From: Clostridia bacterium
GTDB taxonomy: Bacteria > Bacillota > Clostridia > Peptostreptococcales > Acidaminobacteraceae
Length of the DNA: 64,000 nt
NCBI GenBank assembly: GCA_014859095.1
Contig: JACUUV010000004.1
Coordinates: 17,390 to 81,389 of the forward strand
Reading direction: 5' to 3'
This document shows positions 11,425-32,329 of this stretch, in pieces. Within the stretch, counting starts at the first letter, position 1. Every line of letters begins with the position of its first letter. The notes below the pieces were generated by a model. It was not told where the DNA came from. It searched no databases and saw nothing but the letters and a program-made list of their open reading frames with translations. The position numbers and the translations under genes are program-made.

Positions 11425-12042
11425 CTATTTTTCTCGGCTTCTTAAACGGCTCAATATTGAGGCTACTGAAATGTTTTTTTCTCTCAGTAGAACCATCAAA
11501 TGATATAAAAGGTCACTTATTTCATCTATTAAAGGATCGATATCGTCGTTTTTTGAGGCTATGATGACTTCAGAAGCTTCCTCACCAACTTTTTTCAGAA
11601 TTTTATCTATTCCAGAGTCAAAAAGATATTTGGTATAGGAGGAGCTTGAATCAGAGTGTTTTCTTTGATCAACGGTTTCCTCAAGTGCAAATAAAGTGTT
11701 ATATAATGAAGGGAATGAGTCCAACGACTTGATCGGATCTGAAAAAAAGCAACTTGTATGTCCGGTATGGCAAGTCGGACCCTGTGGAATGGCGAATATG
11801 AGCAACGTGTCTTGATCACAGTCCAGTTTGATTTGACTCACCTTAAGCCGATTGCCTGAGGTTTCGCCTTTTTGCCAAAGTTTAAGTCTTTTTCTTGAGT
11901 AGAATGTGACCCAACCAGTTGATTTTGTAATTTCCAGTGCTTCCTCATTCATATATCCCAGCATGAGGACATCGCCTGTCACTGAGTTTTGAATGATTGT
12001 GGGGATTAAACCCGAAGCGTCATAATTGATTTGATTTGTCAT
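11425..12042 (-). CDS. hisIE: bifunctional phosphoribosyl-AMP cyclohydrolase / phosphoribosyl-ATP pyrophosphatase
   Basis: HisI part (GLIPTIIQ......LMLGYMNEEAL..T...G.VTFYSRKR..LW.KGETSGN...V..I.LDCD.D.LL) with a CHTG...CF zinc site, then a HisE part (L..LE..V..R). Confidence 0.9.
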   Translation of the reverse strand: MTNQINYDASGLIPTIIQNSVTGDVLMLGYMNEEALEITKSTGWVTFYSRKRLKLWQKGETSGNRLKVSQIKLDCDQDTLLIFAIPQGPTCHTGHTSCFFSDPIKSLDSFPSLYNTLFALEETVDQRKHSDSSSSYTKYLFDSGIDKILKKVGEEASEVIIASKNDDIDPLIDEISDLLYHLMVLLREKNISVASILSRLRSREK

Positions 12043-12054
12043 GAGAGAATCTCC

Positions 12055-12816
12055 TTATACGAGTCTGATTGGTATTCCACTGGATGCCAGTGTTCTTTTG
12101 AGTAGTCCGATGTTGAGTTGATTTCGATGAAATAGGGAGGCTGCGAGTGCACCGTCAGCACCACCAACAGTTAAAGCATCCTTAAAATGCTTGATTTCAC
12201 CAGCGCCTCCAGATGCGATTATGGGAATGCTGACAGCTTCAGAAATCAAAGAGGTGATTTTGAGATCATACCCTCCATAGACTCCATCATTGTCGATACT
12301 GTTGATTACAATTTCACCAGCACCTAGTGATTCGGCTTTTTTTGCCCATTCCACCGCATCCATATAAGTGTTTGTTCTACCGCCCGTTGTGAATACTGTC
12401 CATTTGCCATCAGATGTCATTTTGACGTCCATTGAAAGGACCACACATTGGTTGCCGAAACGCTTTGCTGCCTCTGTGATTGCGAGTGGATTCTTTATGG
12501 CACCAGAATTAATCGAGACTTTGTCGGCACCTGCAGAGAGCAAATTATAAAAATCCTCAATAGTATTTACACCACCACCGACAGTAAGTGGAATGTTGAT
12601 GTTAATTGCAGTTTTTTCAATCACACCGAGAAGCGCTTTTCTATTTTCATAAGACGCGGATATATCGTAGAAAACGAGTTCGTCCACACCTTCATCACAA
12701 TACCTCTTTGCGAGTTCGACCGGATCGCCTATTGTGGATATGTTTTGAAATTTTATGCCTTTGACCACATTGCCATCATGGACATCGAGGCATGATATGA
12801 TTCGTTTAGCCAGCAT
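12055..12816 (-). CDS. hisF: imidazole glycerol phosphate synthase, cyclase subunit
   Basis: MLAKRIISCLDV.DG.VVKG..F......GDPVELA..Y...G.DELVFYDI.AS... Start set at ATG 12816 (SD GGAGG). It overlaps the hisA stop. Confidence 0.9.
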   Translation of the reverse strand: MLAKRIISCLDVHDGNVVKGIKFQNISTIGDPVELAKRYCDEGVDELVFYDISASYENRKALLGVIEKTAININIPLTVGGGVNTIEDFYNLLSAGADKVSINSGAIKNPLAITEAAKRFGNQCVVLSMDVKMTSDGKWTVFTTGGRTNTYMDAVEWAKKAESLGAGEIVINSIDNDGVYGGYDLKITSLISEAVSIPIIASGGAGEIKHFKDALTVGGADGALAASLFHRNQLNIGLLKRTLASSGIPIRLV

Positions 12817-13522
12817 TTGAGACCTCCAGTGCTTCAACGAGGGTGAAACGTTCTTCATAGAGCGCTTTTCCGACAATACATCCATAAATATTCATGGCAT
12901 TAAGCTTTTTCAGATCTTTTAATGAACCGACACCACCCGATGCAATCAGTTCAACATCGAATGATCTCATAATCGTTTCCAGAACATTGATATTAGGCCC
13001 GATAAACATGCCGTCGGTGTCGATATCCGTATAAACCATCCTTTTGATGCCCATAGAGAGTATCGATCTGATCATATCATCTCTTTTTATCCCAGAAGAG
13101 TTTTGCCAACCATCCGTGGCCATGATGCCATCTTTGCAATCGATTGAAGCAATGATGCGTCCCGGGTAATCACTTACTAGCTTTGATATGATCTTGGGAG
13201 ATTTTGTGAGCCAACTGCCAAGTACAATCTCATAACCCATGTTTAGGTAGTCAGTAGCTGTTTTCAGTGACCTGATGCCTCCACCAATTTGTATGGGTAT
13301 GTCCACAGCTTTTCGAATGTGTTCAAGTAAACGGTCAGAAGTGTTTAGATTGCCACCCGCACCATCAAGATTGACTATGTGCAGTCTTTTTGCACCTTCT
13401 GATACAAATTGTTTGGCAACAAAAACAGGGTCATCGAAATAGACCTTTTTTGTGTCGAAATCGCCTTTAGTAAGTCTGACACATGAGCCACCCATTATGT
13501 CAATCGCTGGATATAATACCAT
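12806..13522 (-). CDS. hisA: 1-(5-phosphoribosyl)-5-[(5-phosphoribosylamino)methylideneamino]imidazole-4-carboxamide isomerase
   Basis: MVLYPAIDIMGG.CVRL.KGDF......Y.DPV..A..F...GA..LH.V.LDGA is the typical HisA pattern, at the expected operon position. Confidence 0.9.
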   Translation of the reverse strand: MVLYPAIDIMGGSCVRLTKGDFDTKKVYFDDPVFVAKQFVSEGAKRLHIVNLDGAGGNLNTSDRLLEHIRKAVDIPIQIGGGIRSLKTATDYLNMGYEIVLGSWLTKSPKIISKLVSDYPGRIIASIDCKDGIMATDGWQNSSGIKRDDMIRSILSMGIKRMVYTDIDTDGMFIGPNINVLETIMRSFDVELIASGGVGSLKDLKKLNAMNIYGCIVGKALYEERFTLVEALEVSNAG

Positions 13523-14138
13523 TTAAGCCTCCTTCAATTAAGTGATTGATCATTGCCTTAAGCATTGTTTCTCCGGATTGGCCACTTTTCTCAGGATGGA
13601 ATTGGAAACCTGCCGCACTTTCTTTTTGGACCACAGCAGGTATTGCTTCTCCATAGTGAGTTGTGAAAAGGACCACACCGGGTTCGGTGGATGTCAGTGC
13701 ATAAGAGTGTACAAAATATGCCCAGCTTCCATTGTAATTCAGACCGTTATCATTTAACTGATCTAATGTGTTCCATCCCATGTGGGGAATTTTAGGTGCA
13801 TCTGGTCTTGGACTGAGCTTTTTAAAATGTCCTTTGATCAGTCCAAGTCCTGATATGCCAGGTGCTTCGTCAGAGCTTTCAAATAAAAGCTGCATGCCAA
13901 GACAAATTCCAAGAAGTGGTCTTGAATATTCAAACCTTTTTTTTAGTGCAGAGGCAATACCGGATTGATTCAACTTATCCATGGCATCACCAAAAGCTCC
14001 AACGCCAGGTAAAATGACAAAATCAGCAGTTTCAATTTCATCTGGATTATTTGATAATGTCAAAGAAATCCCAATTCTCTGAAATGCAGCTTTGACACTG
14101 TGCAGATTCCCGGTGCCATAATCGATTAAAAGATTCAT
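13500..14138 (-). CDS. hisH: imidazole glycerol phosphate synthase, glutamine amidotransferase subunit
   Basis: IDYGTGNLHSV..AF......., ILPGVGAFGDAM, GICLGMQLLFE.S.E (catalytic Cys), and FVHSY...H. Confidence 0.9.
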   Translation of the reverse strand: MNLLIDYGTGNLHSVKAAFQRIGISLTLSNNPDEIETADFVILPGVGAFGDAMDKLNQSGIASALKKRFEYSRPLLGICLGMQLLFESSDEAPGISGLGLIKGHFKKLSPRPDAPKIPHMGWNTLDQLNDNGLNYNGSWAYFVHSYALTSTEPGVVLFTTHYGEAIPAVVQKESAAGFQFHPEKSGQSGETMLKAMINHLIEGGLNGIISSD

Positions 14139-14728
14139 ATTGCACCTCCACTTATTCGGGGATCGCCTTTAATGGAGCTGGAAGTATTGTTGCTTTGTGA
14201 TAGCGCAATTTTCAGTGCTTTACCGAGACTCTTGAAGAGTGCTTCAATGATATGGTGAGAGTTGGACCCATCCAGTACATCGATATGAAGTGTCATCCAG
14301 GCATTGCTGGAAAGTGCGTCTAGGAAAGGGATCATTGAATCGCTTTCAAAAGCCCCCAGTCGTTCGCTGAGTCTGGGAAGTTCACATTTCAGATATCGAC
14401 GTCCACCGAGGTCGATCACAGATCTCACGAGTGCTTCATCCATCGGAATCGTGACACTTGCGAATCGCTCCACTAAGGGTTTTGTTTTCATAAATTCATA
14501 TAATGCATTTCCTATCACAATACCAACATCCTCTGCTGTGTGGTGGGTGTCAACGTCAAGATCGCCTGTGACATTTATGGTCAGATTGAAACCGGCATAA
14601 AAGGTCATTGTGTTGAGCATATGATCAAAGAAACCTATACCGGTCCTAATATCACTTATACCGGAGCCATAAGGTTCGAGTGCTAACTTGACGACAGTTT
14701 CTTTAGTCTCTCTTGTGATTTCAATCAT
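14135..14728 (-). CDS. hisB: imidazoleglycerol-phosphate dehydratase
   Basis: RETKET.V.L.L...G......TGIGFFDHML........F.L.....GDL.VD.HHT.EDVGI..G is the IGPD signature. Start at ATG 14728 (SD AAGGGAG). Confidence 0.9.
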   Translation of the reverse strand: MIEITRETKETVVKLALEPYGSGISDIRTGIGFFDHMLNTMTFYAGFNLTINVTGDLDVDTHHTAEDVGIVIGNALYEFMKTKPLVERFASVTIPMDEALVRSVIDLGGRRYLKCELPRLSERLGAFESDSMIPFLDALSSNAWMTLHIDVLDGSNSHHIIEALFKSLGKALKIALSQSNNTSSSIKGDPRISGGAI

Positions 14729-15701
14729 GTTGTCTCCCTTCTTCGCAGGCAAGAATCATTTTAAGCACTTCATTATTTTGTTGCTCTGTTCCAAGACTGA
14801 ATCTTACATACGACTTAAGTGAATTGTCATCAAAGAACCTCATTGAAAAGGAAGCTTCAGACAAACTCTTTTTAAGATTTGATAGGTTCCGGGATTTGAA
14901 AAGTATGAAATTTCCGCCGGATTCGATGTATGGAATATTCATCCTATTTAGCTCGCTTTGAACCCGCTCTCGTTCCACTACAATTTTTTCAATGTTGACT
15001 TTTACTGAAGCAAGGTTATCGAGTAAGTTCAGCACTGCGGCGACTGTGAATTGGTTGACATTGTAGGGTGCTCTTTTTGACTCGATCCGCTCTATGTTGG
15101 ACTCTGAAGAGATTGCAAAACCGAATCTTAACGCTGCAAGACCATAACCTTTGGAAAAAGTCCTGAGGACGATCAGATTATTGTACTTTCGAATATAAGA
15201 CAAAACCGATTCGCCACCAAAATCAATATAAGCTTCGTCGACGATGACAGTTGCACTTGTACTTTCGAGAAGGTATATGATCTCTGCTTTTTTTATGATT
15301 TGACCCGTTGGATTGTTTGGATTGCAAAGAATAATGAGTTTTGGATTATATTTCTTCACGTGTTGGATCATCAGTTTCATATCCGGATTATAGGGAGGTT
15401 CCAGCTTGAGTTCGACATATTTAGAATCTCTTAATTCACAGATTCGTTTGTATTCGCTGAATGTAGGTGCAAAACTGACAATTTCATCACTCGCTGATGC
15501 TAGTGCGAATATCGTGCTTTGAAGGACTTCGTCAGATCCGTTGCCTAAACTGAGATTGTTACTGTCAACACCAATTGTTTTTGCTAGTTTATTCTTTAGC
15601 TCTGAATAATCAGAATCGGGATAACGATTCAGATGGATGTTTGCAAGACATTTGTCCCATTCAATCTGAGCAGGGTAAGGGTTTTCATTTTTTTCCAGCA
15701 T
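14721..15701 (-). CDS. hisC: histidinol-phosphate aminotransferase
   Basis: Class-II aminotransferase pattern (LNRYPD..., GNGSDE, NPNNPTG, VDEAY.DF, RTFSKGYGLAALR.G with the PLP lysine). Start at ATG 15701 overlaps the hisD 3' end. Confidence 0.88.
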   Translation of the reverse strand: MLEKNENPYPAQIEWDKCLANIHLNRYPDSDYSELKNKLAKTIGVDSNNLSLGNGSDEVLQSTIFALASASDEIVSFAPTFSEYKRICELRDSKYVELKLEPPYNPDMKLMIQHVKKYNPKLIILCNPNNPTGQIIKKAEIIYLLESTSATVIVDEAYIDFGGESVLSYIRKYNNLIVLRTFSKGYGLAALRFGFAISSESNIERIESKRAPYNVNQFTVAAVLNLLDNLASVKVNIEKIVVERERVQSELNRMNIPYIESGGNFILFKSRNLSNLKKSLSEASFSMRFFDDNSLKSYVRFSLGTEQQNNEVLKMILACEEGRQHD

Positions 15702-16911
15702 GATTTCTGACCTCCAATGCATTTTTGTGTGCGGTCAATCCCTCAATTTCCGCAAATTCTTGAACGGAAGCATTCACTGAACGTAGTGCTTCCTCAGTAT
15801 AATACAAATAACTCGGTCTCCTGATGAAATCATAGACGCCTAAGGGGGATGAGAATCTCGCAGTACCATTTGTGGGAAGTGTATGGTTGGTTCCGGCGTA
15901 GTAATCGCCTAGTGTTTCAGGTGTATAGTTACCCAGGAAGATTGCGCCGGCGTTGATCACAGTGTCAAGATAATCAAACGGATTTTCTATTGCAAGTTCG
16001 AGATGCTCAGGGGCAATGGTGTTGGCAAAGTCAATGCATTCATCTAGGGTTGCGGCTATATGGACTTTGAAGTTCTGATCCAGCGCTTTTGATATGGTAT
16101 CATCTCGTGACAATTTTGGCAGTTGGACATTCAATTCAGCAATGACGGAACTTGCGATATCTTGATCGGTTGTAATCAGAAAAAGACGTGCATTGGCATC
16201 GTGTTCCGCCTGGGCCATCAGGTCTGCAGCGATGAATTCAGGTGATGCAGTAGAATCGGCTACCACAGCAATTTCACTTGGTCCTGCTATCATATCTATG
16301 GCAACATCTCCAAACACTATTTTTTTTGCCATCGTCACATAACGGTTGCCAGGCCCGACAATTTTGTCAACTTTCTTGATGGATTCTGTTCCATAAGTTG
16401 CTGCGGCAATCGCTTGTGCACCACCGACGCGATAAATTTCCGTTATGCCAAGTCTATGACATACATAGAGTACGTGTGAGTCGAGTTCACCATTTATCCC
16501 TGGAGGGGAGAGGACTACGATTTCTTTTACACCTGCGATTTGAGCCGGTATGGCGTTCATTAGTACTGTTGAAGGGTAGATTGCTGTACCACCAGGAATG
16601 TAAAGTGCCACTCTGTTCAGTGGAAGGATCCGCTGTCCCATGATGATGCCTTGGTCCCTCTTGATTTCAAAGGCTTTGGGCAATTGATTGATGTGGTAGG
16701 CTCTTATATTGTCAATAGCTTCATCCACAGTTGTGATGAAAGAGGATGATACTTTCGATTCTGATTTAATAATCAAATCGTTTTCTACTCTAAGAGCTGT
16801 AATTTCCGATAGATCAAAAAGTCTTGTATATTCAAGAAGGGCAGAGTCGCCCTCCTGTCTGACTTTACCAATAATGGTTTTTACTTCGGCTTCTATGGTC
16901 TCATTGAACAT
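15685..16911 (-). CDS. hisD: histidinol dehydrogenase
   Basis: ...LYIPGGTA.YPSTVLMNAIPA.IAGV.EIV...PP..., AQAEHD, APEHLEL are the typical HisD motifs. Confidence 0.9.
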   Translation of the reverse strand: MFNETIEAEVKTIIGKVRQEGDSALLEYTRLFDLSEITALRVENDLIIKSESKVSSSFITTVDEAIDNIRAYHINQLPKAFEIKRDQGIIMGQRILPLNRVALYIPGGTAIYPSTVLMNAIPAQIAGVKEIVVLSPPGINGELDSHVLYVCHRLGITEIYRVGGAQAIAAATYGTESIKKVDKIVGPGNRYVTMAKKIVFGDVAIDMIAGPSEIAVVADSTASPEFIAADLMAQAEHDANARLFLITTDQDIASSVIAELNVQLPKLSRDDTISKALDQNFKVHIAATLDECIDFANTIAPEHLELAIENPFDYLDTVINAGAIFLGNYTPETLGDYYAGTNHTLPTNGTARFSSPLGVYDFIRRPSYLYYTEEALRSVNASVQEFAEIEGLTAHKNALEVRNHAGKK

Positions 16912-17533
16912 TGAGGATCTCCTTTTCTATATTTTTCAGCCTTTCAATCAACCGGTTGATGGCTTCAAATTTTGTTTTGTATGCGACTGGATTTGAAATC
17001 AAACGTGTGGATACGTCTTCTATTTCTTCGATTACAATCAAGTTGTTGTCGCGGAGAGTTCGTCCTGACTCCACCAAATCGACGATGACATCGCTGATGC
17101 CAACAACTGGCCCAAGTTCTACGGAACCGTTCAGTTTTATGACCGTTCCAAGCTTGCCAGAGTTCTTCAGAAATAACTCCGTGCTCTTTGGATATTTTGA
17201 TGCTACCGTGACCCAAGTCTTTTCATAGTAGGCGTGTGTGGCGGGTCCGGCGAGGCACAGTTTGCAACTGCCTATTTTAAGGTCGAGCAGTTCATATCCG
17301 TCAAATTCATATTCCTTCAGTACATCACTACCGACAACGCCAAGTTCAGCGACTGCTGATTGAACATAAGTGGGAACATCGTCCGCTTTGACCAAAATGA
17401 ATTTGAGCAGCATTGAACTGTCATAAAATTGAAGACTTTTCTCGCTACCAGGTTCAATTGCTATACCCAGGACTCTTAATTTTTCAAGAAATGCATTTGC
17501 CACCCGTCCTTTTGAAAGTGCTATCGTTATCAT
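16901..17533 (-). CDS. hisG: ATP phosphoribosyltransferase, short (HisZ-dependent) form
   Basis: MITIALSKGR.......L...GI... and DLVESGRTLRDNNL. At 210 aa it lacks the C-terminal regulatory domain, which fits the adjacent hisZ. Confidence 0.9.
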   Translation of the reverse strand: MITIALSKGRVANAFLEKLRVLGIAIEPGSEKSLQFYDSSMLLKFILVKADDVPTYVQSAVAELGVVGSDVLKEYEFDGYELLDLKIGSCKLCLAGPATHAYYEKTWVTVASKYPKSTELFLKNSGKLGTVIKLNGSVELGPVVGISDVIVDLVESGRTLRDNNLIVIEEIEDVSTRLISNPVAYKTKFEAINRLIERLKNIEKEILNVQ

Positions 17534-17542
17534 GAAATCCTC

Positions 17543-18760
17543 CTAGTGAATGGATATGCTGGTGGGGTTCGAAATCAGACGACTTTTAAGTGCATCCGGA
17601 CTGATTCGATAAGTCTCATTTTTTAATTGATCAATCACTTTGATGAACCCATCATTAAAATCTAGAATTTGATTCACCGATTTGAAATAATCACTTTGAA
17701 GTGCGATGCTGTAATCCTTTGGTCGCAAATTGAATTTGACTGAAAATCCTTTTGTCCTTAGCCAATTCGAGAAATCTAGTGCGGGACTGAATAGTTCCTC
17801 ATCGTAAATGAGTACGAAATTGGTTCGATCAATGGTCATGGTATTTTTCATTTTAATCACCTCAATTATATTTTTTATATCTATTGCTCCACCACAGGCT
17901 TCAAATTCATATCCAAAATGCTTTGATAGATCATCGTATCGGCCCCCTTGAGCAACCGTTTTGCCGGTATCAACAGAGTAAACTTTGAAGAGAGGACCTG
18001 TGTAATACGATTTTGGGTGGGTCAGGCATAGATCCAGTGCAATTTTATTCTTTGTGATTTGCTCACTGTCCAAATCTTGGATTCTATTGATAATACTTTC
18101 AAGTTGGTCCAGTGATTCAACCAATTTAGGCGTTGTTGCCAATGTTTTGGCTTTTTTTATTACTTCAATAGGTGATCCTGTAAGAGCCAATAGCTTCTCA
18201 AGTGATTTTCTTTGATGCAGTGATAAATCCTTTATGGACTCTACTGATCTTTTTCTAAGCGCTTTTTCAATATCCGGAAGATCGGTATCTGAAAAGTTAA
18301 GGGATTTGATCAGCTCAGCAGTAAAAAAGATATGTCCGATATCCAGATGGATATTTTGGACTCCAAGCTTATTGAGCACCATGCAGTTGAGGAGGATGAT
18401 TTCAGCGTCGCTTTCTGTTCCTGAATTGCCATAATACTCGAAGCCACCTTGAAGCGATTCCTTTAAGCCAATCGGTGCTTTGTGATCGAGTGTCACGATG
18501 CTCGATTTGTAATAGGTTTTCAGGTAACCATCACAAAGTGGAGCAATCTGCTTAGTGGCATGTGGAGTCGGGTCGCTTTTGAGTGAGAGCAGATCTCCTG
18601 AGGGAGCCATTATTTTCACTGCACCTGTGTCCATTTTGTGATTGTATTTTCCGAAAGTCTCAGTGAAGACTGCTTCATAGCCGTATGATTTGGCAATTGT
18701 TTCTAAAGTTTGAAAAATATGGTTGGTCAGGGTAAATTCGTTTGCATTCAGATTCAGCAT
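17543..18760 (-). CDS. hisZ: ATP phosphoribosyltransferase regulatory subunit (HisRS paralogue)
   Basis: HisRS-like class-II fold without an anticodon-binding function (...LKSDPTP..., YYTGPLFKVY, GGRYD.L). It is the first gene of the operon, directly upstream of a short-form hisG. Confidence 0.85.
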   Translation of the reverse strand: MLNLNANEFTLTNHIFQTLETIAKSYGYEAVFTETFGKYNHKMDTGAVKIMAPSGDLLSLKSDPTPHATKQIAPLCDGYLKTYYKSSIVTLDHKAPIGLKESLQGGFEYYGNSGTESDAEIILLNCMVLNKLGVQNIHLDIGHIFFTAELIKSLNFSDTDLPDIEKALRKRSVESIKDLSLHQRKSLEKLLALTGSPIEVIKKAKTLATTPKLVESLDQLESIINRIQDLDSEQITKNKIALDLCLTHPKSYYTGPLFKVYSVDTGKTVAQGGRYDDLSKHFGYEFEACGGAIDIKNIIEVIKMKNTMTIDRTNFVLIYDEELFSPALDFSNWLRTKGFSVKFNLRPKDYSIALQSDYFKSVNQILDFNDGFIKVIDQLKNETYRISPDALKSRLISNPTSISIH

Positions 18761-18770
18761 ATTGCCTCCA

Positions 18771-18809
18771 AAATAAAAAAATCATGTAGTGAGCGAACAC
18801 CTACATGAT
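18771..18809 (-). terminator. second terminator-like hairpin of the his leader, abutting the hisZ SD
   Basis: Minus strand: ATCATGTAG-(11 nt)-CTACATGAT followed by TTTTTTTATTTT, then GGAGGCAAT-ATG(hisZ). Confidence 0.55.
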
Positions 18810-18813
18810 TCTT

Positions 18814-18883
18814 AAAAATAAAAAACCACCATTAGATGCAAGCTCATTTCAAAGAGAAACAGAGCTTGCATGCCATGGTGGTC
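18814..18883 (-). terminator. his attenuator terminator
   Basis: Minus strand: GACCACCAT-GG-CATGCAAGCTC (16-nt loop) GAGCTTGCAT-CTA-ATGGTGGT followed by TTTTTATTTTT. The stem is 8 + 10 bp and interrupted. Confidence 0.75.
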
Positions 18884-18918
18884 TAAGTTTATATTAGACA
18901 CTAATGGTTACAAACCCT

Positions 18919-18972
18919 CTAATGGTGATGATGAAGTTGTGCGGAAAAAGCAATTTCAAATTTATTAAACAT
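18919..18972 (-). CDS. his operon leader peptide (hisL-like), MFNKFEIAFSAQLHHHH
   Basis: ATG 18972 is preceded by SD AGAGGTG. The 17 codons end CAT CAT CAC CAT TAG. The ORF lies between a consensus promoter and a terminator, directly upstream of hisZ. Confidence 0.7.
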   Translation of the reverse strand: MFNKFEIAFSAQLHHHH

Positions 18973-18996
18973 ATCGCACCTCTTGTCTTTTTTAGA

Positions 18997-19025
18997 ATAT
19001 TAACACATGATTGGAGGATTGTCAA
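18997..19025 (-). promoter_or_regulatory. sigma-A promoter of the his operon
   Basis: Minus strand reads TTGACA (19025..19020), a 17-nt spacer, then TAATAT (19002..18997). Confidence 0.7.
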
Positions 19026-19081
19026 CTCCATGGTATAATTAAAATATCAAATCGGGAAATGTCCCCAAATTTTGCGGAAAA

Positions 19082-19472
19082 ATGTGGCTTGCTCCCGGAA
19101 TGTCGATGGAGGACATCACGACACTGAAGTCTGCTGGTTTGATGCACGATATTGGTAAAATTGCCATTCGTCTTGACTTGTATGATAAAGAAACGTCTTG
19201 GACCCCCGCAGAGCGCATGGAAATAGGAAGTCACTCCGAAGTAGGCTATCAACTTCTCAAATCCATCACGGAGACAACGAGGCGAACATATCCCTCTTGA
19301 ATCGAGAATCATTGCGATTGCGAATTTTTATGATACAATTGTTAGGTAACATATGGATAGTGGCTCGGGTGATAGGCAATTTTTGATCAATGAACTTGAA
19401 AAAGCAAAGGGAAAACAATTGGATCCGGTACTAGTAGAAATTTTCATAGAAAAAGTATTGAATAGAAAGTAG
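19082..19472 (+). pseudogene. decayed HD-GYP (HD-domain phosphohydrolase) gene remnant
   Basis: Three frames carry consecutive HD-GYP pieces: ...AGLMHDIGKIAI...EIGSHSEVGYQLLKSI (stop), then HIPLESRIIAIANFYDTIVR (stop), then ...ELEKAKGKQLDPVLVEIFIEKVL. The N-terminal part and the HHE...GYP segment are missing. Confidence 0.7.
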
Positions 19473-21001: not shown

Positions 21002-22363
21002 TTATTTTTTGCATGATTTTATATGTTCCAGTACGGATTTTTTGCTGGTGGATCCTGTGGATTTTTTACCTTCAATACTTGTGAAAGGCTCAAGAGCTTT
21101 GTAAACACATTCATCGATCAAGTCGGAATAAGTTTTGAGCTCACTAAGAGAAAGTTCTTCAATCGGAATGTTCTTATCAATACAATCCAGAGTTATTTTT
21201 CCTGCAATCTCATGACACTCTCTGAATGGAAGTCCCTTACCAACGAGATAATCCGCCAAATCTGTGGCGTTTAAATACCCTTTCTTGACAGCCATTGCCA
21301 TATTTTCTTTAAGGAAAATGGAGCTGGACAACATTTCAGTGAAGACAGTGAGGCAAATATCAAGAGTTTCTACTGTATCAAAAAGACCTTCCTTATCTTC
21401 TTGCATATCCTTGTTGTATGCTAAAGGCAATCCTTTCATTACAGTCAAAATACCCATCAGGTTGCCGTACACGCGGCCTGTCTTTCCTCGAATCAATTCC
21501 GCTGCGTCAGGATTTTTCTTTTGTGGCATGATACTGCTTCCAGTGGAGAATTGATCGCTGAGTTCAATGAATTTGAATTCTGTACTGGACCAAAGTATGA
21601 TTTCTTCGGAGAATCTGCTGAGATGCATCATAATGATTGATCCGACACTCTGAAGCTCAATGACAAAATCCCTGTCACTGACAGCATCCATCGCGTTCAT
21701 GGAATATTTCGAAAAGCCGAGTTGCTCTTTCAAGTATTCACGGTCAGTCGAATAATTAACCCCGGCTAGTGCCCCCGATCCCAGTGGCATGACGTCTACA
21801 CGTCTTTTTAGATCGTTACATCGATCCAGATCTCTTAAAAACATTTCATAATAAGCCATCAGATGAAATGCCAAAGTGATGGGTTGCGCACGCTGTAAGT
21901 GAGTATAACCCGGCATGAGTGTGTCCACATTCGATTCGCTGATTTCGAGGAGAACTCTCATCAAATCATTCAGTCTTCCTGTCAGATTGTCGAGAGCTTT
22001 TTTCACATATAACCTGAGATCCACAGCAACTTGATCGTTGCGGCTTCTTGCTGTATGAAGCTTCTTGCTCAAACTTCCGACCTTTTCTGCCAACAATGAT
22101 TCAATATTCATATGAATGTCTTCATTTGCGATGGTCAGAACAGCCTCACCTGTCTCGATTTCAGCCTGAATCATCCTTAACGCGGTAATCAGTTCAGACA
22201 GTTCATTTTTTTCAAGGATTCCAATTTGGCATAGCATTTTTGCATGAGCAATTGAGCCTTCTATATCCTCTTCGTACAATTTTTGATCAAATGTAATGGA
22301 AGCGTTGAATTCGTCCATCATATGATGTGTGGACTCTTTGAAACGACCACCCCATAGTTTCAT
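21002..22363 (-). CDS. argH: argininosuccinate lyase
   Basis: MKLWGGRF...., the fumarate-lyase signature ([12 protein letters not shown]), and YTHLQRAQP. Confidence 0.92.
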
Positions 22364-23790: not shown

Positions 23791-23835
23791 TGATTGCTTA
23801 TTTCAATAATGAATGCACCTGAAATCCTCTGATTT

Positions 23836-24082
23836 CTTGGGACGAATTTCTCCGCGGTACCACCCAAATTAGCTTTTAGCTCTCTCATTATCAGTACGGA
23901 CATGTTGTCGATACTTATTCCCTTTAACGGTGGACATCCGGCTCACCTTACTGATTACTTCTTGTGAGCTGCTTGAAAAAGTTCTCAATATCATTGTTTC
24001 GTATGAGCTTACACCAACCTCATATCGCTGAACCCACGCCAATATATTTTCTTTTTCTCAAACGCATTTAATTATGAACTTA
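23836..24082 (-). promoter_or_regulatory. T-box leader (tRNA-sensing riboswitch) upstream of argG-argH
   Basis: The reverse complement of 23852..23870 reads AATTTGGGTGGTACCGCGG (T-box consensus AAnnnGGGTGGTACCGCG). An F-box-like CCGTTA (23930..23925) and AGAGAG lie upstream. An antiterminator-type helix is present (TTGGG...bulge TGGTACC...CCCAA). Confidence 0.8.
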
Positions 24083-32204: not shown

Positions 32205-32305
32205 ATCCATTGCTAGGGGTGCTGCATAGCGGGCAGCTGAGAAAAGAAACCTATTTTTTTACCCTTTGTACCTGATCCAGATCATACTGGCGTAGGAAAG
32301 CTGAT
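32205..32305 (+). promoter_or_regulatory. TPP (THI-box) riboswitch
   Basis: CTAGGGGTGC...GCTGAGA...ACCCTTTGTACCTGATCCAGATCATACTGGCGTAGGAAAGC matches the THI element core (Rfam RF00059 type). Confidence 0.9.
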
Positions 32306-32329
32306 AATCGTTTGATTTTTTTGAACGCT

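Follow-up and report, generated by a model that had tools for sequence, protein, structure and literature searches.

A survey of >600 Firmicute genomes recorded HisR sites in 395 of them and His T-boxes in 129, the latter mainly in Lactobacillales (PMC9413887). In 17 genomes, belonging to the Bacillus cereus group, to Peptostreptococcaceae together with Lutispora, and to Erysipelotrichales, candidate His leader-peptide attenuators were proposed (Ashniev et al. 2022, PMC9413887), the leader peptide of the B. cereus group having been found by Naville and Gautheret 2010 (PMC2965389). Each of the surveyed attenuators lies upstream of hisZ and combines an 'attenuator hairpin' with a terminator hairpin and an alternative antiterminator (PMC9413887). 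The element considered here lies on the minus strand of a 64-kb window (the whole stretch of DNA analyzed, positions 17,390 to 81,389 of contig JACUUV010000004.1) from an uncultured Clostridia bacterium, between the promoter and the first gene of a hisZGDCBHAF-IE operon. A first-pass annotation had read it as a leader-peptide attenuator and had added the premise that his operons in this group are usually controlled by T-boxes and that His leader peptides are the enterobacterial solution. The premise is outdated in both parts: HisR is the commonest regulator and T-boxes are found mainly in Lactobacillales (PMC9413887), and three Firmicute lineages with His leader peptides had already been predicted (PMC9413887, PMC2965389). 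A His leader peptide in front of hisZ is a known mechanism in Firmicutes, and the window element is a new instance of it, not a new principle. The attenuator reading itself gains support from a conserved open reading frame (ORF), His-codon run and terminators, from the lack of a rival element, and from a predicted antiterminator that depends on ribosome position; the element is likely a ribosome-mediated His leader-peptide transcription attenuator of the his operon.

The anatomy of the leader follows that of known leader-peptide attenuators (Table 1). A short ORF with its own Shine-Dalgarno (SD) sequence sits between the promoter and the operon, the His-codon run at its end matches the amino-acid product of the operon, and two intrinsic terminators predicted from the sequence, T1 and T2, lie between the ORF and hisZ. 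The promoter, SD and 17-codon ORF ending in CAT CAT CAC CAT are all seen on the minus strand as first described, and NCBIfam assigns all nine ORFs of the operon. The promoter scores 10/12 in a consensus scan and is the top promoter-like site of its 1-kb neighborhood; the TG of its extended -10 element stands two bases 5' of the -10 hexamer, and transcription is predicted to start at ~18990. The motif (CAY)4 is found once in the 64-kb window when both strands are counted (128 kb of sequence). A spacer of 35 nt separates the stop codon of the ORF from T1, and folding of the leader gives z = -4.8. The first-pass annotation had described T1 as an interrupted 18-bp hairpin followed by a T-run; hairpin and T-run are present, but the stem is longer, with ~26 pairs. 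The second hairpin and T-run, said to touch the hisZ SD, were also recovered, and the stem was counted at 11-13 pairs. Neither T1 nor T2 appears in the list of a simple terminator scan, which admits no gaps in a stem and no loop outside 3-8 nt; both were missed because of bulges and these loop limits, so the scan provides no counter-evidence.

Conservation of the leader among relatives points to the same assignment. A HisZ protein search of a database of 5.8 billion sequences returned, besides an identical protein from a metagenome-assembled genome (MAG) of a 'Clostridia bacterium', four close clusters at 81-90% identity, the next match having 28%. The loci of these clusters were fetched, and GTDB genomes were scanned with HisD, which yielded three species with both operon and leader: Bacillota bacterium B4G8H2-05, Clostridiales bacterium SMBSF52 and Firmicutes bacterium UBA5201, all three known as MAGs. 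All close-relative loci found carry the leader, as seven distinct variants in 11 loci. In pairwise comparisons of five variants, the 281 nt from ~19041 to the hisZ ATG are 95.0-97.9% identical, and the hisZ coding sequence is 76.9-87.4% identical overall and 50.5-71.4% identical at third codon positions. Leader conservation starts abruptly ~30 nt 5' of the -35 box, and beyond ~19052 the sequence is unrelated or diverged. The -35 and -10 hexamers are unchanged in all relatives, promoter differences being confined to single spacer changes in two loci, L004 and L011. The alignment of hisZ upstream regions that the first-pass annotation had proposed as a check also shows that the mini-ORF and its His run are retained: none of the seven variants departs from the ATG, the reading frame, the four His codons or the TAG, and the sole change in the run, CAC to CAT in L004, is synonymous. 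Codons 2, 4, 5 and 6 vary non-synonymously (F2Y, K4N, F5Y, E6K), a pattern as would be expected of a translated leader in which the His run counts and the peptide otherwise matters little. T2 and the spacer are nearly as conserved as T1.

Outside this close group the leader was not encountered. No distant homologues were found in HisD-based scans of GTDB genomes or in metagenome scans; a metagenome scan for CAYCAYTAGAGGGTTTGTAA returned one true copy and five chance matches lacking his genes. The next HisD relatives (~47-50% identical) have neither a His-codon run nor a T-box upstream of their his genes, whose regulation is therefore of another type. A stretch of CAY codons close to hisD of a Marinimicrobia locus was discarded, as it lies within the hisG coding sequence in another frame. 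Two outgroup Clostridia MAGs carry an S-adenosylmethionine (SAM) riboswitch ~2.5 kb 5' of hisD on the opposite strand (L012:1445-1569 and L068:1426-1549, both minus). The HisZ protein of the clade (17543..18760, minus strand) is itself unusually isolated, whereas HisD has relatives at 50%; the window HisZ scores 191 bits with NCBIfam, under the curated hisZ cut-off of 272 bits. The leader peptide is not called as a gene in any locus. Small ORFs of 30 and 48 aa are called opposite the leader in two relatives (L001:2750-2955 and L004:2722-2868, both minus) and overlap the attenuator; they are probably spurious.

Alternative structures were sought by folding growing transcripts with the ribosomal A site on His1, His2, His3, His4 or the stop codon, assuming a ribosome footprint that extends ~14 nt from where the A-site codon begins. 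In the resulting model the leader RNA would contain six overlapping segments: A, the His codons with UAG; B, the 34 nt past the stop; C and D, the arms of T1; and E and F, the arms of T2. Antiterminator 1 (AT1, B:C) begins at the base right after the stop codon and takes up the entire 5' arm of T1. It is built from the helices AGGGUUUGUA (18918..18909):UGCAAGCUCU (18870..18861), CCAU:AUGG and GUGUCUAA:UUAGA-CAC; the short helix GTGTCTAA/TTAGAC-CAC of the first-pass annotation is present, as merely the core of this much longer structure. AT1 is the minimum free energy (MFE) structure of transcripts exposed as far as idx 132-150 (idx being 18992 minus the window coordinate), both without a ribosome and with His1 in the A site, a position that leaves the whole of AT1 uncovered at the assumed footprint. 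Moving the A site from His2 to His4 strips the outer helix step by step, and with the stop codon in the A site all of this helix and part of CCAU are covered, leaving an AT1 core of -4.4 kcal/mol. In silico, a ribosome at His1 or His2 thus permits AT1 and one at His4 or the stop codon prevents it, the behavior required of an antiterminator. The barrier for refolding from AT1 to T1 is 8.1 kcal/mol with B free and 3.8-5.1 kcal/mol with B masked by a stop-codon ribosome, figures that are findpath estimates rather than a kinetic simulation; as a rough estimate, the gap may mean that the rates differ by about a hundred-fold or more.

Two further pairings involve the 3' arm of T1. When AT1 is enforced, this arm pairs with the 5' arm of T2 and T2 is not formed. 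The product, antiterminator 2 (AT2, D:E), consists of the helices UGAGC:GCUCA, GCAUCUA:UAGGUGU and GUGGUUUUU:AAGAAUCAU, has an energy of -17.7 to -20.2 kcal/mol, compared with -13.1 kcal/mol for T2 alone, and is the MFE structure until the T2 3' arm is transcribed. Segment A is complementary to the lower T1 3' arm (A:D; 12 pairs, -16.7 kcal/mol), and the synonymous His-run change in L004 keeps a G-U pair here. The CCATTAG repeats and three pairing partners of CTAATGGTGG previously described in the leader are indeed found; the partners number three because segment A complements the T1 3' arm. In a control in which one strand was held fixed and the other dinucleotide-shuffled (n=2000), the real pairing value was reached by 7/2000 shuffles for AT1, 1-2/2000 for AT2 and 0/2000 for A:D, so that each complementarity is above its shuffled control. 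An additional helix, GGGUUUGUA:UAUAAACUU, which would enclose a UUAG/CUAA hairpin, was considered as an anti-antiterminator and dropped; it is weak (-4.4 kcal/mol), and variable positions 18893 and 18892 break or weaken it, yet sit in the loop of AT1.

Natural variation is distributed in keeping with these helices. The 245-nt alignment (18992..18748) contains 23 variable positions, 22 in the leader and one in hisZ (18755). Fourteen are unpaired in all five helices, and six remain paired, by G-U or by a better pair. The other three each break a pair: two of these pairs close the end of a helix, one in the AT1 core and one in AT2, and the third lies within the T2 stem of L004. Positions 18893 and 18892 are the two most variable central positions, and an A-to-G change at 18879 retains a G-U pair in both T1 and AT1. 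Between 18918 and 18779, 5/25 unpaired and 7/115 paired positions are variable, an enrichment of variable sites among the unpaired ones (one-sided Fisher p = 0.04).

Table 1. Features of the his leader and operon, in window coordinates.
Feature	Coordinates	Strand	Description	Basis
A+T-rich block	19026..19052	-	possible UP element upstream of -35 box; common to relatives; conservation starts here	alignments
Promoter	18997..19025	-	sigma-A-type; TTGACA (19025..19020), 17 nt, TAATAT (19002..18997); TG extended -10	sequence and consensus scan
Leader-ORF SD	18977..18982	-	GAGGTG; 6 nt before ATG; invariant in relatives	sequence; alignments
Leader ORF	18919..18972	-	ATG..TAG, 17 codons and stop; encodes MFNKFEIAFSAQLHHHH	sequence
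His run	18922..18933	-	CAT CAT CAC CAT, directly before stop; with TAG, segment A	sequence
AT1 (B:C)	18861..18918	-	antiterminator 1; 58-nt hairpin, -19.0 kcal/mol	MFE of growing transcripts
T1 (C:D)	18814..18884	-	terminator 1; hairpin 18884..18822, ~26 pairs, -34.9 kcal/mol, then U6AU5	folding
AT2 (D:E)	18790..18846	-	antiterminator 2; T1 3' arm with spacer and T2 5' arm/loop	folding with AT1 enforced
T2 (E:F)	18770..18811	-	terminator 2; hairpin 18811..18779, 11-13 pairs, -12.8 kcal/mol, then U7AU4	folding
hisZ SD and start	18760..18769	-	GGAGG (18769..18765), ATG 18760; directly 3' of T2	sequence
his operon	11425..18760	-	hisZ-hisG-hisD-hisC-hisB-hisH-hisA-hisF-hisIE	ORFs and NCBIfam assignment of nine ORFs

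Searches for known regulatory elements also bear on the assignment. At gathering thresholds the leader region has no Rfam match, and neither T-box (RF00230) nor His_leader (RF00514) matches 18600..19300 at E up to 10. The earlier statement that a T-box is absent here and present in the arginine leader holds: a T-box leader at 23835..24071 (minus strand; 98.2 bits, gathering 93) lies upstream of arginine genes, among them argH (21002..22363). T-boxes thus serve other amino acids in this genome, but not histidine. A thiamine pyrophosphate (TPP) riboswitch is found at 32205..32315 on the plus strand (76 bits, gathering 54.3). Control of the operon at the DNA level, by HisR or another repressor, with the leader hairpins devoid of regulatory function, would accord with the prevalence of HisR among his regulators in Firmicutes (PMC9413887) and with the conserved A+T-rich block that precedes the -35 box. 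The HisR operator cacTTTA-N6-TAAAgtg, a 20-bp palindrome, has no match near the promoter (18760-19060), and the two matches to its consensus in the window at three mismatches, at 13751 and 24988, lie elsewhere and within the chance expectation of 3.35. Such a repressor would also leave unexplained two U-run hairpins and a His-codon ORF conserved at 95-98%. This alternative is extremely improbable, although a repressor acting in addition to the leader may exist, the scope here being 64 kb of the genome.

A switch that senses a ligand or protein directly, such as an orphan riboswitch, a tRNA-sensing element or a TRAP- or HutP-like site on the UAG triplets, would instead make T1 and T2 an expression platform and the mini-ORF incidental or secondary. 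The leader is conserved nearly base for base, including loops, spacers and codons 7-13, beyond the need of simple hairpins, and a permissive Rfam scan gives a weak, sub-threshold likeness to the orphan trpB motif (RF04312; 30.4 bits against a gathering threshold of 59, E = 0.035), the remaining matches being microRNA noise. This match rests on generic hairpins, and the conserved nucleotides of the motif are unmatched. Three evenly spaced UAG triplets could also be seen as a binding site. As reported in the first-pass annotation, they lie 18 nt apart in the frame of the leader ORF (18921..18919, 18903..18901 and 18885..18883, minus strand); they belong to the recurring CCAUUAG/CUUAG words from which AT1 and the A:D pairing are made, and would double as back-up stops, and a separate role is not evident. 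TRAP sites consist of ~11 triplets with 2-3 nt spacers and HutP sites have 4-nt spacers, and an 18-nt spacing fits neither. Sensing of tRNA is disfavored by the UGGU in the T1 3' arm, which would presumably mismatch the discriminator base of tRNA-His, and the ~70 nt of non-coding RNA before T1 leave little room for an aptamer. An SD-preceded ORF that ends in four His codons before a his operon, the sole (CAY)4 in 128 kb, is moreover very unlikely to arise by chance, and the only change within its His run is synonymous. Direct sensing is accordingly a very improbable explanation, if slightly less so than a repressor alone.

From these features we infer that the ORF is translated, that the ribosome stalls, that the helices fold in a certain order and that T1 and T2 act as terminators; together these points give the following scheme. 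The strong promoter would produce a leader RNA of ~230 nt encoding a 17-residue peptide that ends HHHH-stop. Under histidine starvation, a ribosome awaiting His-tRNA at the first His codons would cover A, with its front edge at about the stop codon. With the edge halted there, B would be free, and AT1 would therefore form once C is made; because C and A would then both be occupied, D would pair with E to give AT2. Neither T1 nor T2 would form, and RNA polymerase would proceed into hisZ. Under histidine-replete conditions, the ribosome would reach UAG and mask approximately the first 12 nt of B, so that only the AT1 core (-4.4 kcal/mol) would be possible; C:D would zip into T1 and terminate transcription. 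Since D would be locked in T1, E:F would form T2, which would stop polymerases that slip past T1. If the leader is untranslated, free A would capture D; A:D would block AT2, and T2 would therefore still terminate. A ribosome stalled on the His codons would lift this lock, and one ribosome position could thus govern both terminators. The second terminator, which the first-pass annotation had left unexplained, is plausibly the second stage of this relay. What may be new about the element is confined to this relay and the A:D lock; in its details this scheme is offered tentatively, with the balance tipped slightly against it.

Several considerations weigh against the scheme. The host is an uncultured MAG, and a function for the leader has been deduced by computation. 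Whole-leader thermodynamic folding with ribosome masks, the approach suggested by the first-pass annotation, gives T1 as the MFE structure under every mask; such folding therefore cannot expose the antiterminator, which came from growing-transcript folding. T1 (-34.9 kcal/mol) is far more stable than AT1 (-19 kcal/mol). With T1 dominating the full-length MFE, antitermination must be purely kinetic. A weak 5-pair A/U-rich extension at the apex of T1 lies outside the cover of AT1 and could act as a toehold that nucleates strand displacement. The 'on' and 'off' ribosome positions are 3-12 nt apart, so the outcome hinges on the assumed footprint values. Transcription in Bacillus subtilis reportedly outruns translation, an observation said to be that of Johnson et al. 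in Nature in 2020; if the two processes are uncoupled, a polymerase pause would be needed, and no pause site could be identified in the leader. The model gives no reason why codons 7-13 should be invariant down to the nucleotide, or why several loops should not vary. The seven near-identical variants show no compensatory double changes, and covariation consequently cannot support AT1, AT2 or A:D. Finally, T2 is slightly degraded in L004, where one mid-stem pair is broken and a C interrupts the U-run, and it may be less essential.

The last point relates to another arrangement, in which only T1 is under ribosome control and T2 is an unregulated fail-safe that lowers basal expression or answers a separate signal, D:E being a by-product of the CCAT/ATGG repeats. 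T2 folds locally on its own and is followed by a good U-run, and it tolerates the broken pair and interrupted U-run of L004. With the T2 3' arm present, the T2-containing structure is slightly more stable than AT2 (-21.9 vs -20.2 kcal/mol), and a literature search found no published leader-peptide attenuator with two relayed terminators. The D:E complementarity, in contrast, comprises 21 pairs in three helices and is matched by only 1-2/2000 shuffles, and AT2 is the MFE structure before the T2 3' arm is made and whenever AT1 is enforced. An efficient unregulated terminator right before the hisZ SD would also waste the derepression won at T1, and T2 and the spacer show nearly the conservation of T1. 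An independent T2 is, on these grounds, unlikely, though a more serious contender than either a repressor or a directly sensing switch. The preferred reading in its fullest form, a lineage-specific, independently evolved attenuator in which one ribosome position is relayed via AT1, T1, AT2 and T2 to switch two tandem terminators while A:D, as a fifth pairing, holds the untranslated leader off, is possible and still somewhat more doubtful than the mechanistic scheme taken by itself.

Comparison with described systems locates this leader closest to the Firmicute His attenuators (PMC9413887, PMC2965389). Phylum and regulated operon (hisZG...) are the same, and in both a short ORF with its own SD carries 3-5 His codons in a row (four here). 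Two hairpins come next, the second of them a terminator, and an antiterminator can form in their stead. The published attenuators occur in lineages that lack both HisR site and His T-box, and the window leader likewise lacks both. It differs from the published groups in that its His run abuts the stop codon, its antiterminator starts at the next base, and two serial terminators are linked by AT2. The lineage (uncultured Bacillota: UBA5201, SMBSF52, B4G8H2-05) falls outside the survey (PMC9413887). In the available part of the source on Lutispora thermophila, the word AGGGTTTGTA follows the His codons as it does here. As far as that portion shows, nothing is alignable past this 10-nt word, which lies within the ORF there and pairs with a different partner; the attenuator hairpin of the Lutispora sequence as published also lacks a U-run, whereas the first hairpin here is a full terminator.

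The Salmonella his leader, reportedly divided into segments A-F in the 1980 PNAS paper of Johnston et al., provides a mechanistic parallel. In the Salmonella/E. coli his attenuator, as in the scheme proposed here, a peptide with a His run is encoded, B:C and D:E correspond to read-through, C:D and E:F correspond to termination, and ribosome position selects between them. Seven His codons are present there and four here, C:D is itself a terminator in the window leader, and the no-translation lock is A:B in the enterobacterial system and would be A:D here. The proteobacterial family RF00514 has no match to the window leader at E up to 10, and the host phylum, unlike that of Salmonella and E. coli, may be without transcription-translation coupling. 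T-box leaders (RF00230; His-responsive in Lactobacillales and Corynebacterium) share with the proposed mechanism the tRNA-His charging signal and the terminator/antiterminator output, but they contact the tRNA directly through RNA, whereas charging would be sensed through the ribosome here. The trpB motif (RF04312) is an orphan riboswitch or attenuator candidate from Firmicutes and Fusobacteria (PMC11109978). It has two hairpins, and the second is an intrinsic terminator whose antiterminator occupies the right shoulder of the first, the geometry that AT2 has here; its gene association is different.

The region directly upstream of the his promoter differs from that of the relatives. A frameshifted remnant of an HD-GYP domain gene (MSMEDITTLKSAGLMHDIGK...; 19052..19249, plus strand) has 89% DNA identity to codons near the far end of the relatives' 822-aa HAMP-PAS-GGDEF-HD-GYP gene. 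The relatives all carry a YbaK-like tRNA_edit gene and a full GGDEF/HD-GYP gene at this place, and the window lacks ~2.5 kb. The break falls exactly where the conserved promoter block begins on its upstream side; it is either the scar of a deletion or an error in the assembly of the MAG. A 96-aa ORF (19022..19312, minus strand) runs antisense to the remnant and has no family match.

Literature searches returned nothing on tandem terminators in leader-peptide attenuators, nor on runaway transcription with leader peptides. With the element described here, the Firmicute lineages in which a leader peptide with His codons would have replaced HisR or a T-box before hisZ number four, the new one apparently unrelated in sequence to the others, and this added lineage supports the idea that such attenuators arise repeatedly. 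It is small, sharply bounded and extremely conserved, and its proposed logic would unite one sensor, two terminators and a no-translation lock. In annotation, the leader ORF should carry a leader-peptide label. If the relay is true, its architecture would be one undescribed for leader-peptide attenuators, and a very tight off state could be combined with full derepression. How the ribosome keeps up with RNA polymerase in this phylum would then become a question, and the leader would offer a compact natural test case of ribosome-mediated attenuation in Bacillota, in which transcription and translation are thought to be uncoupled.

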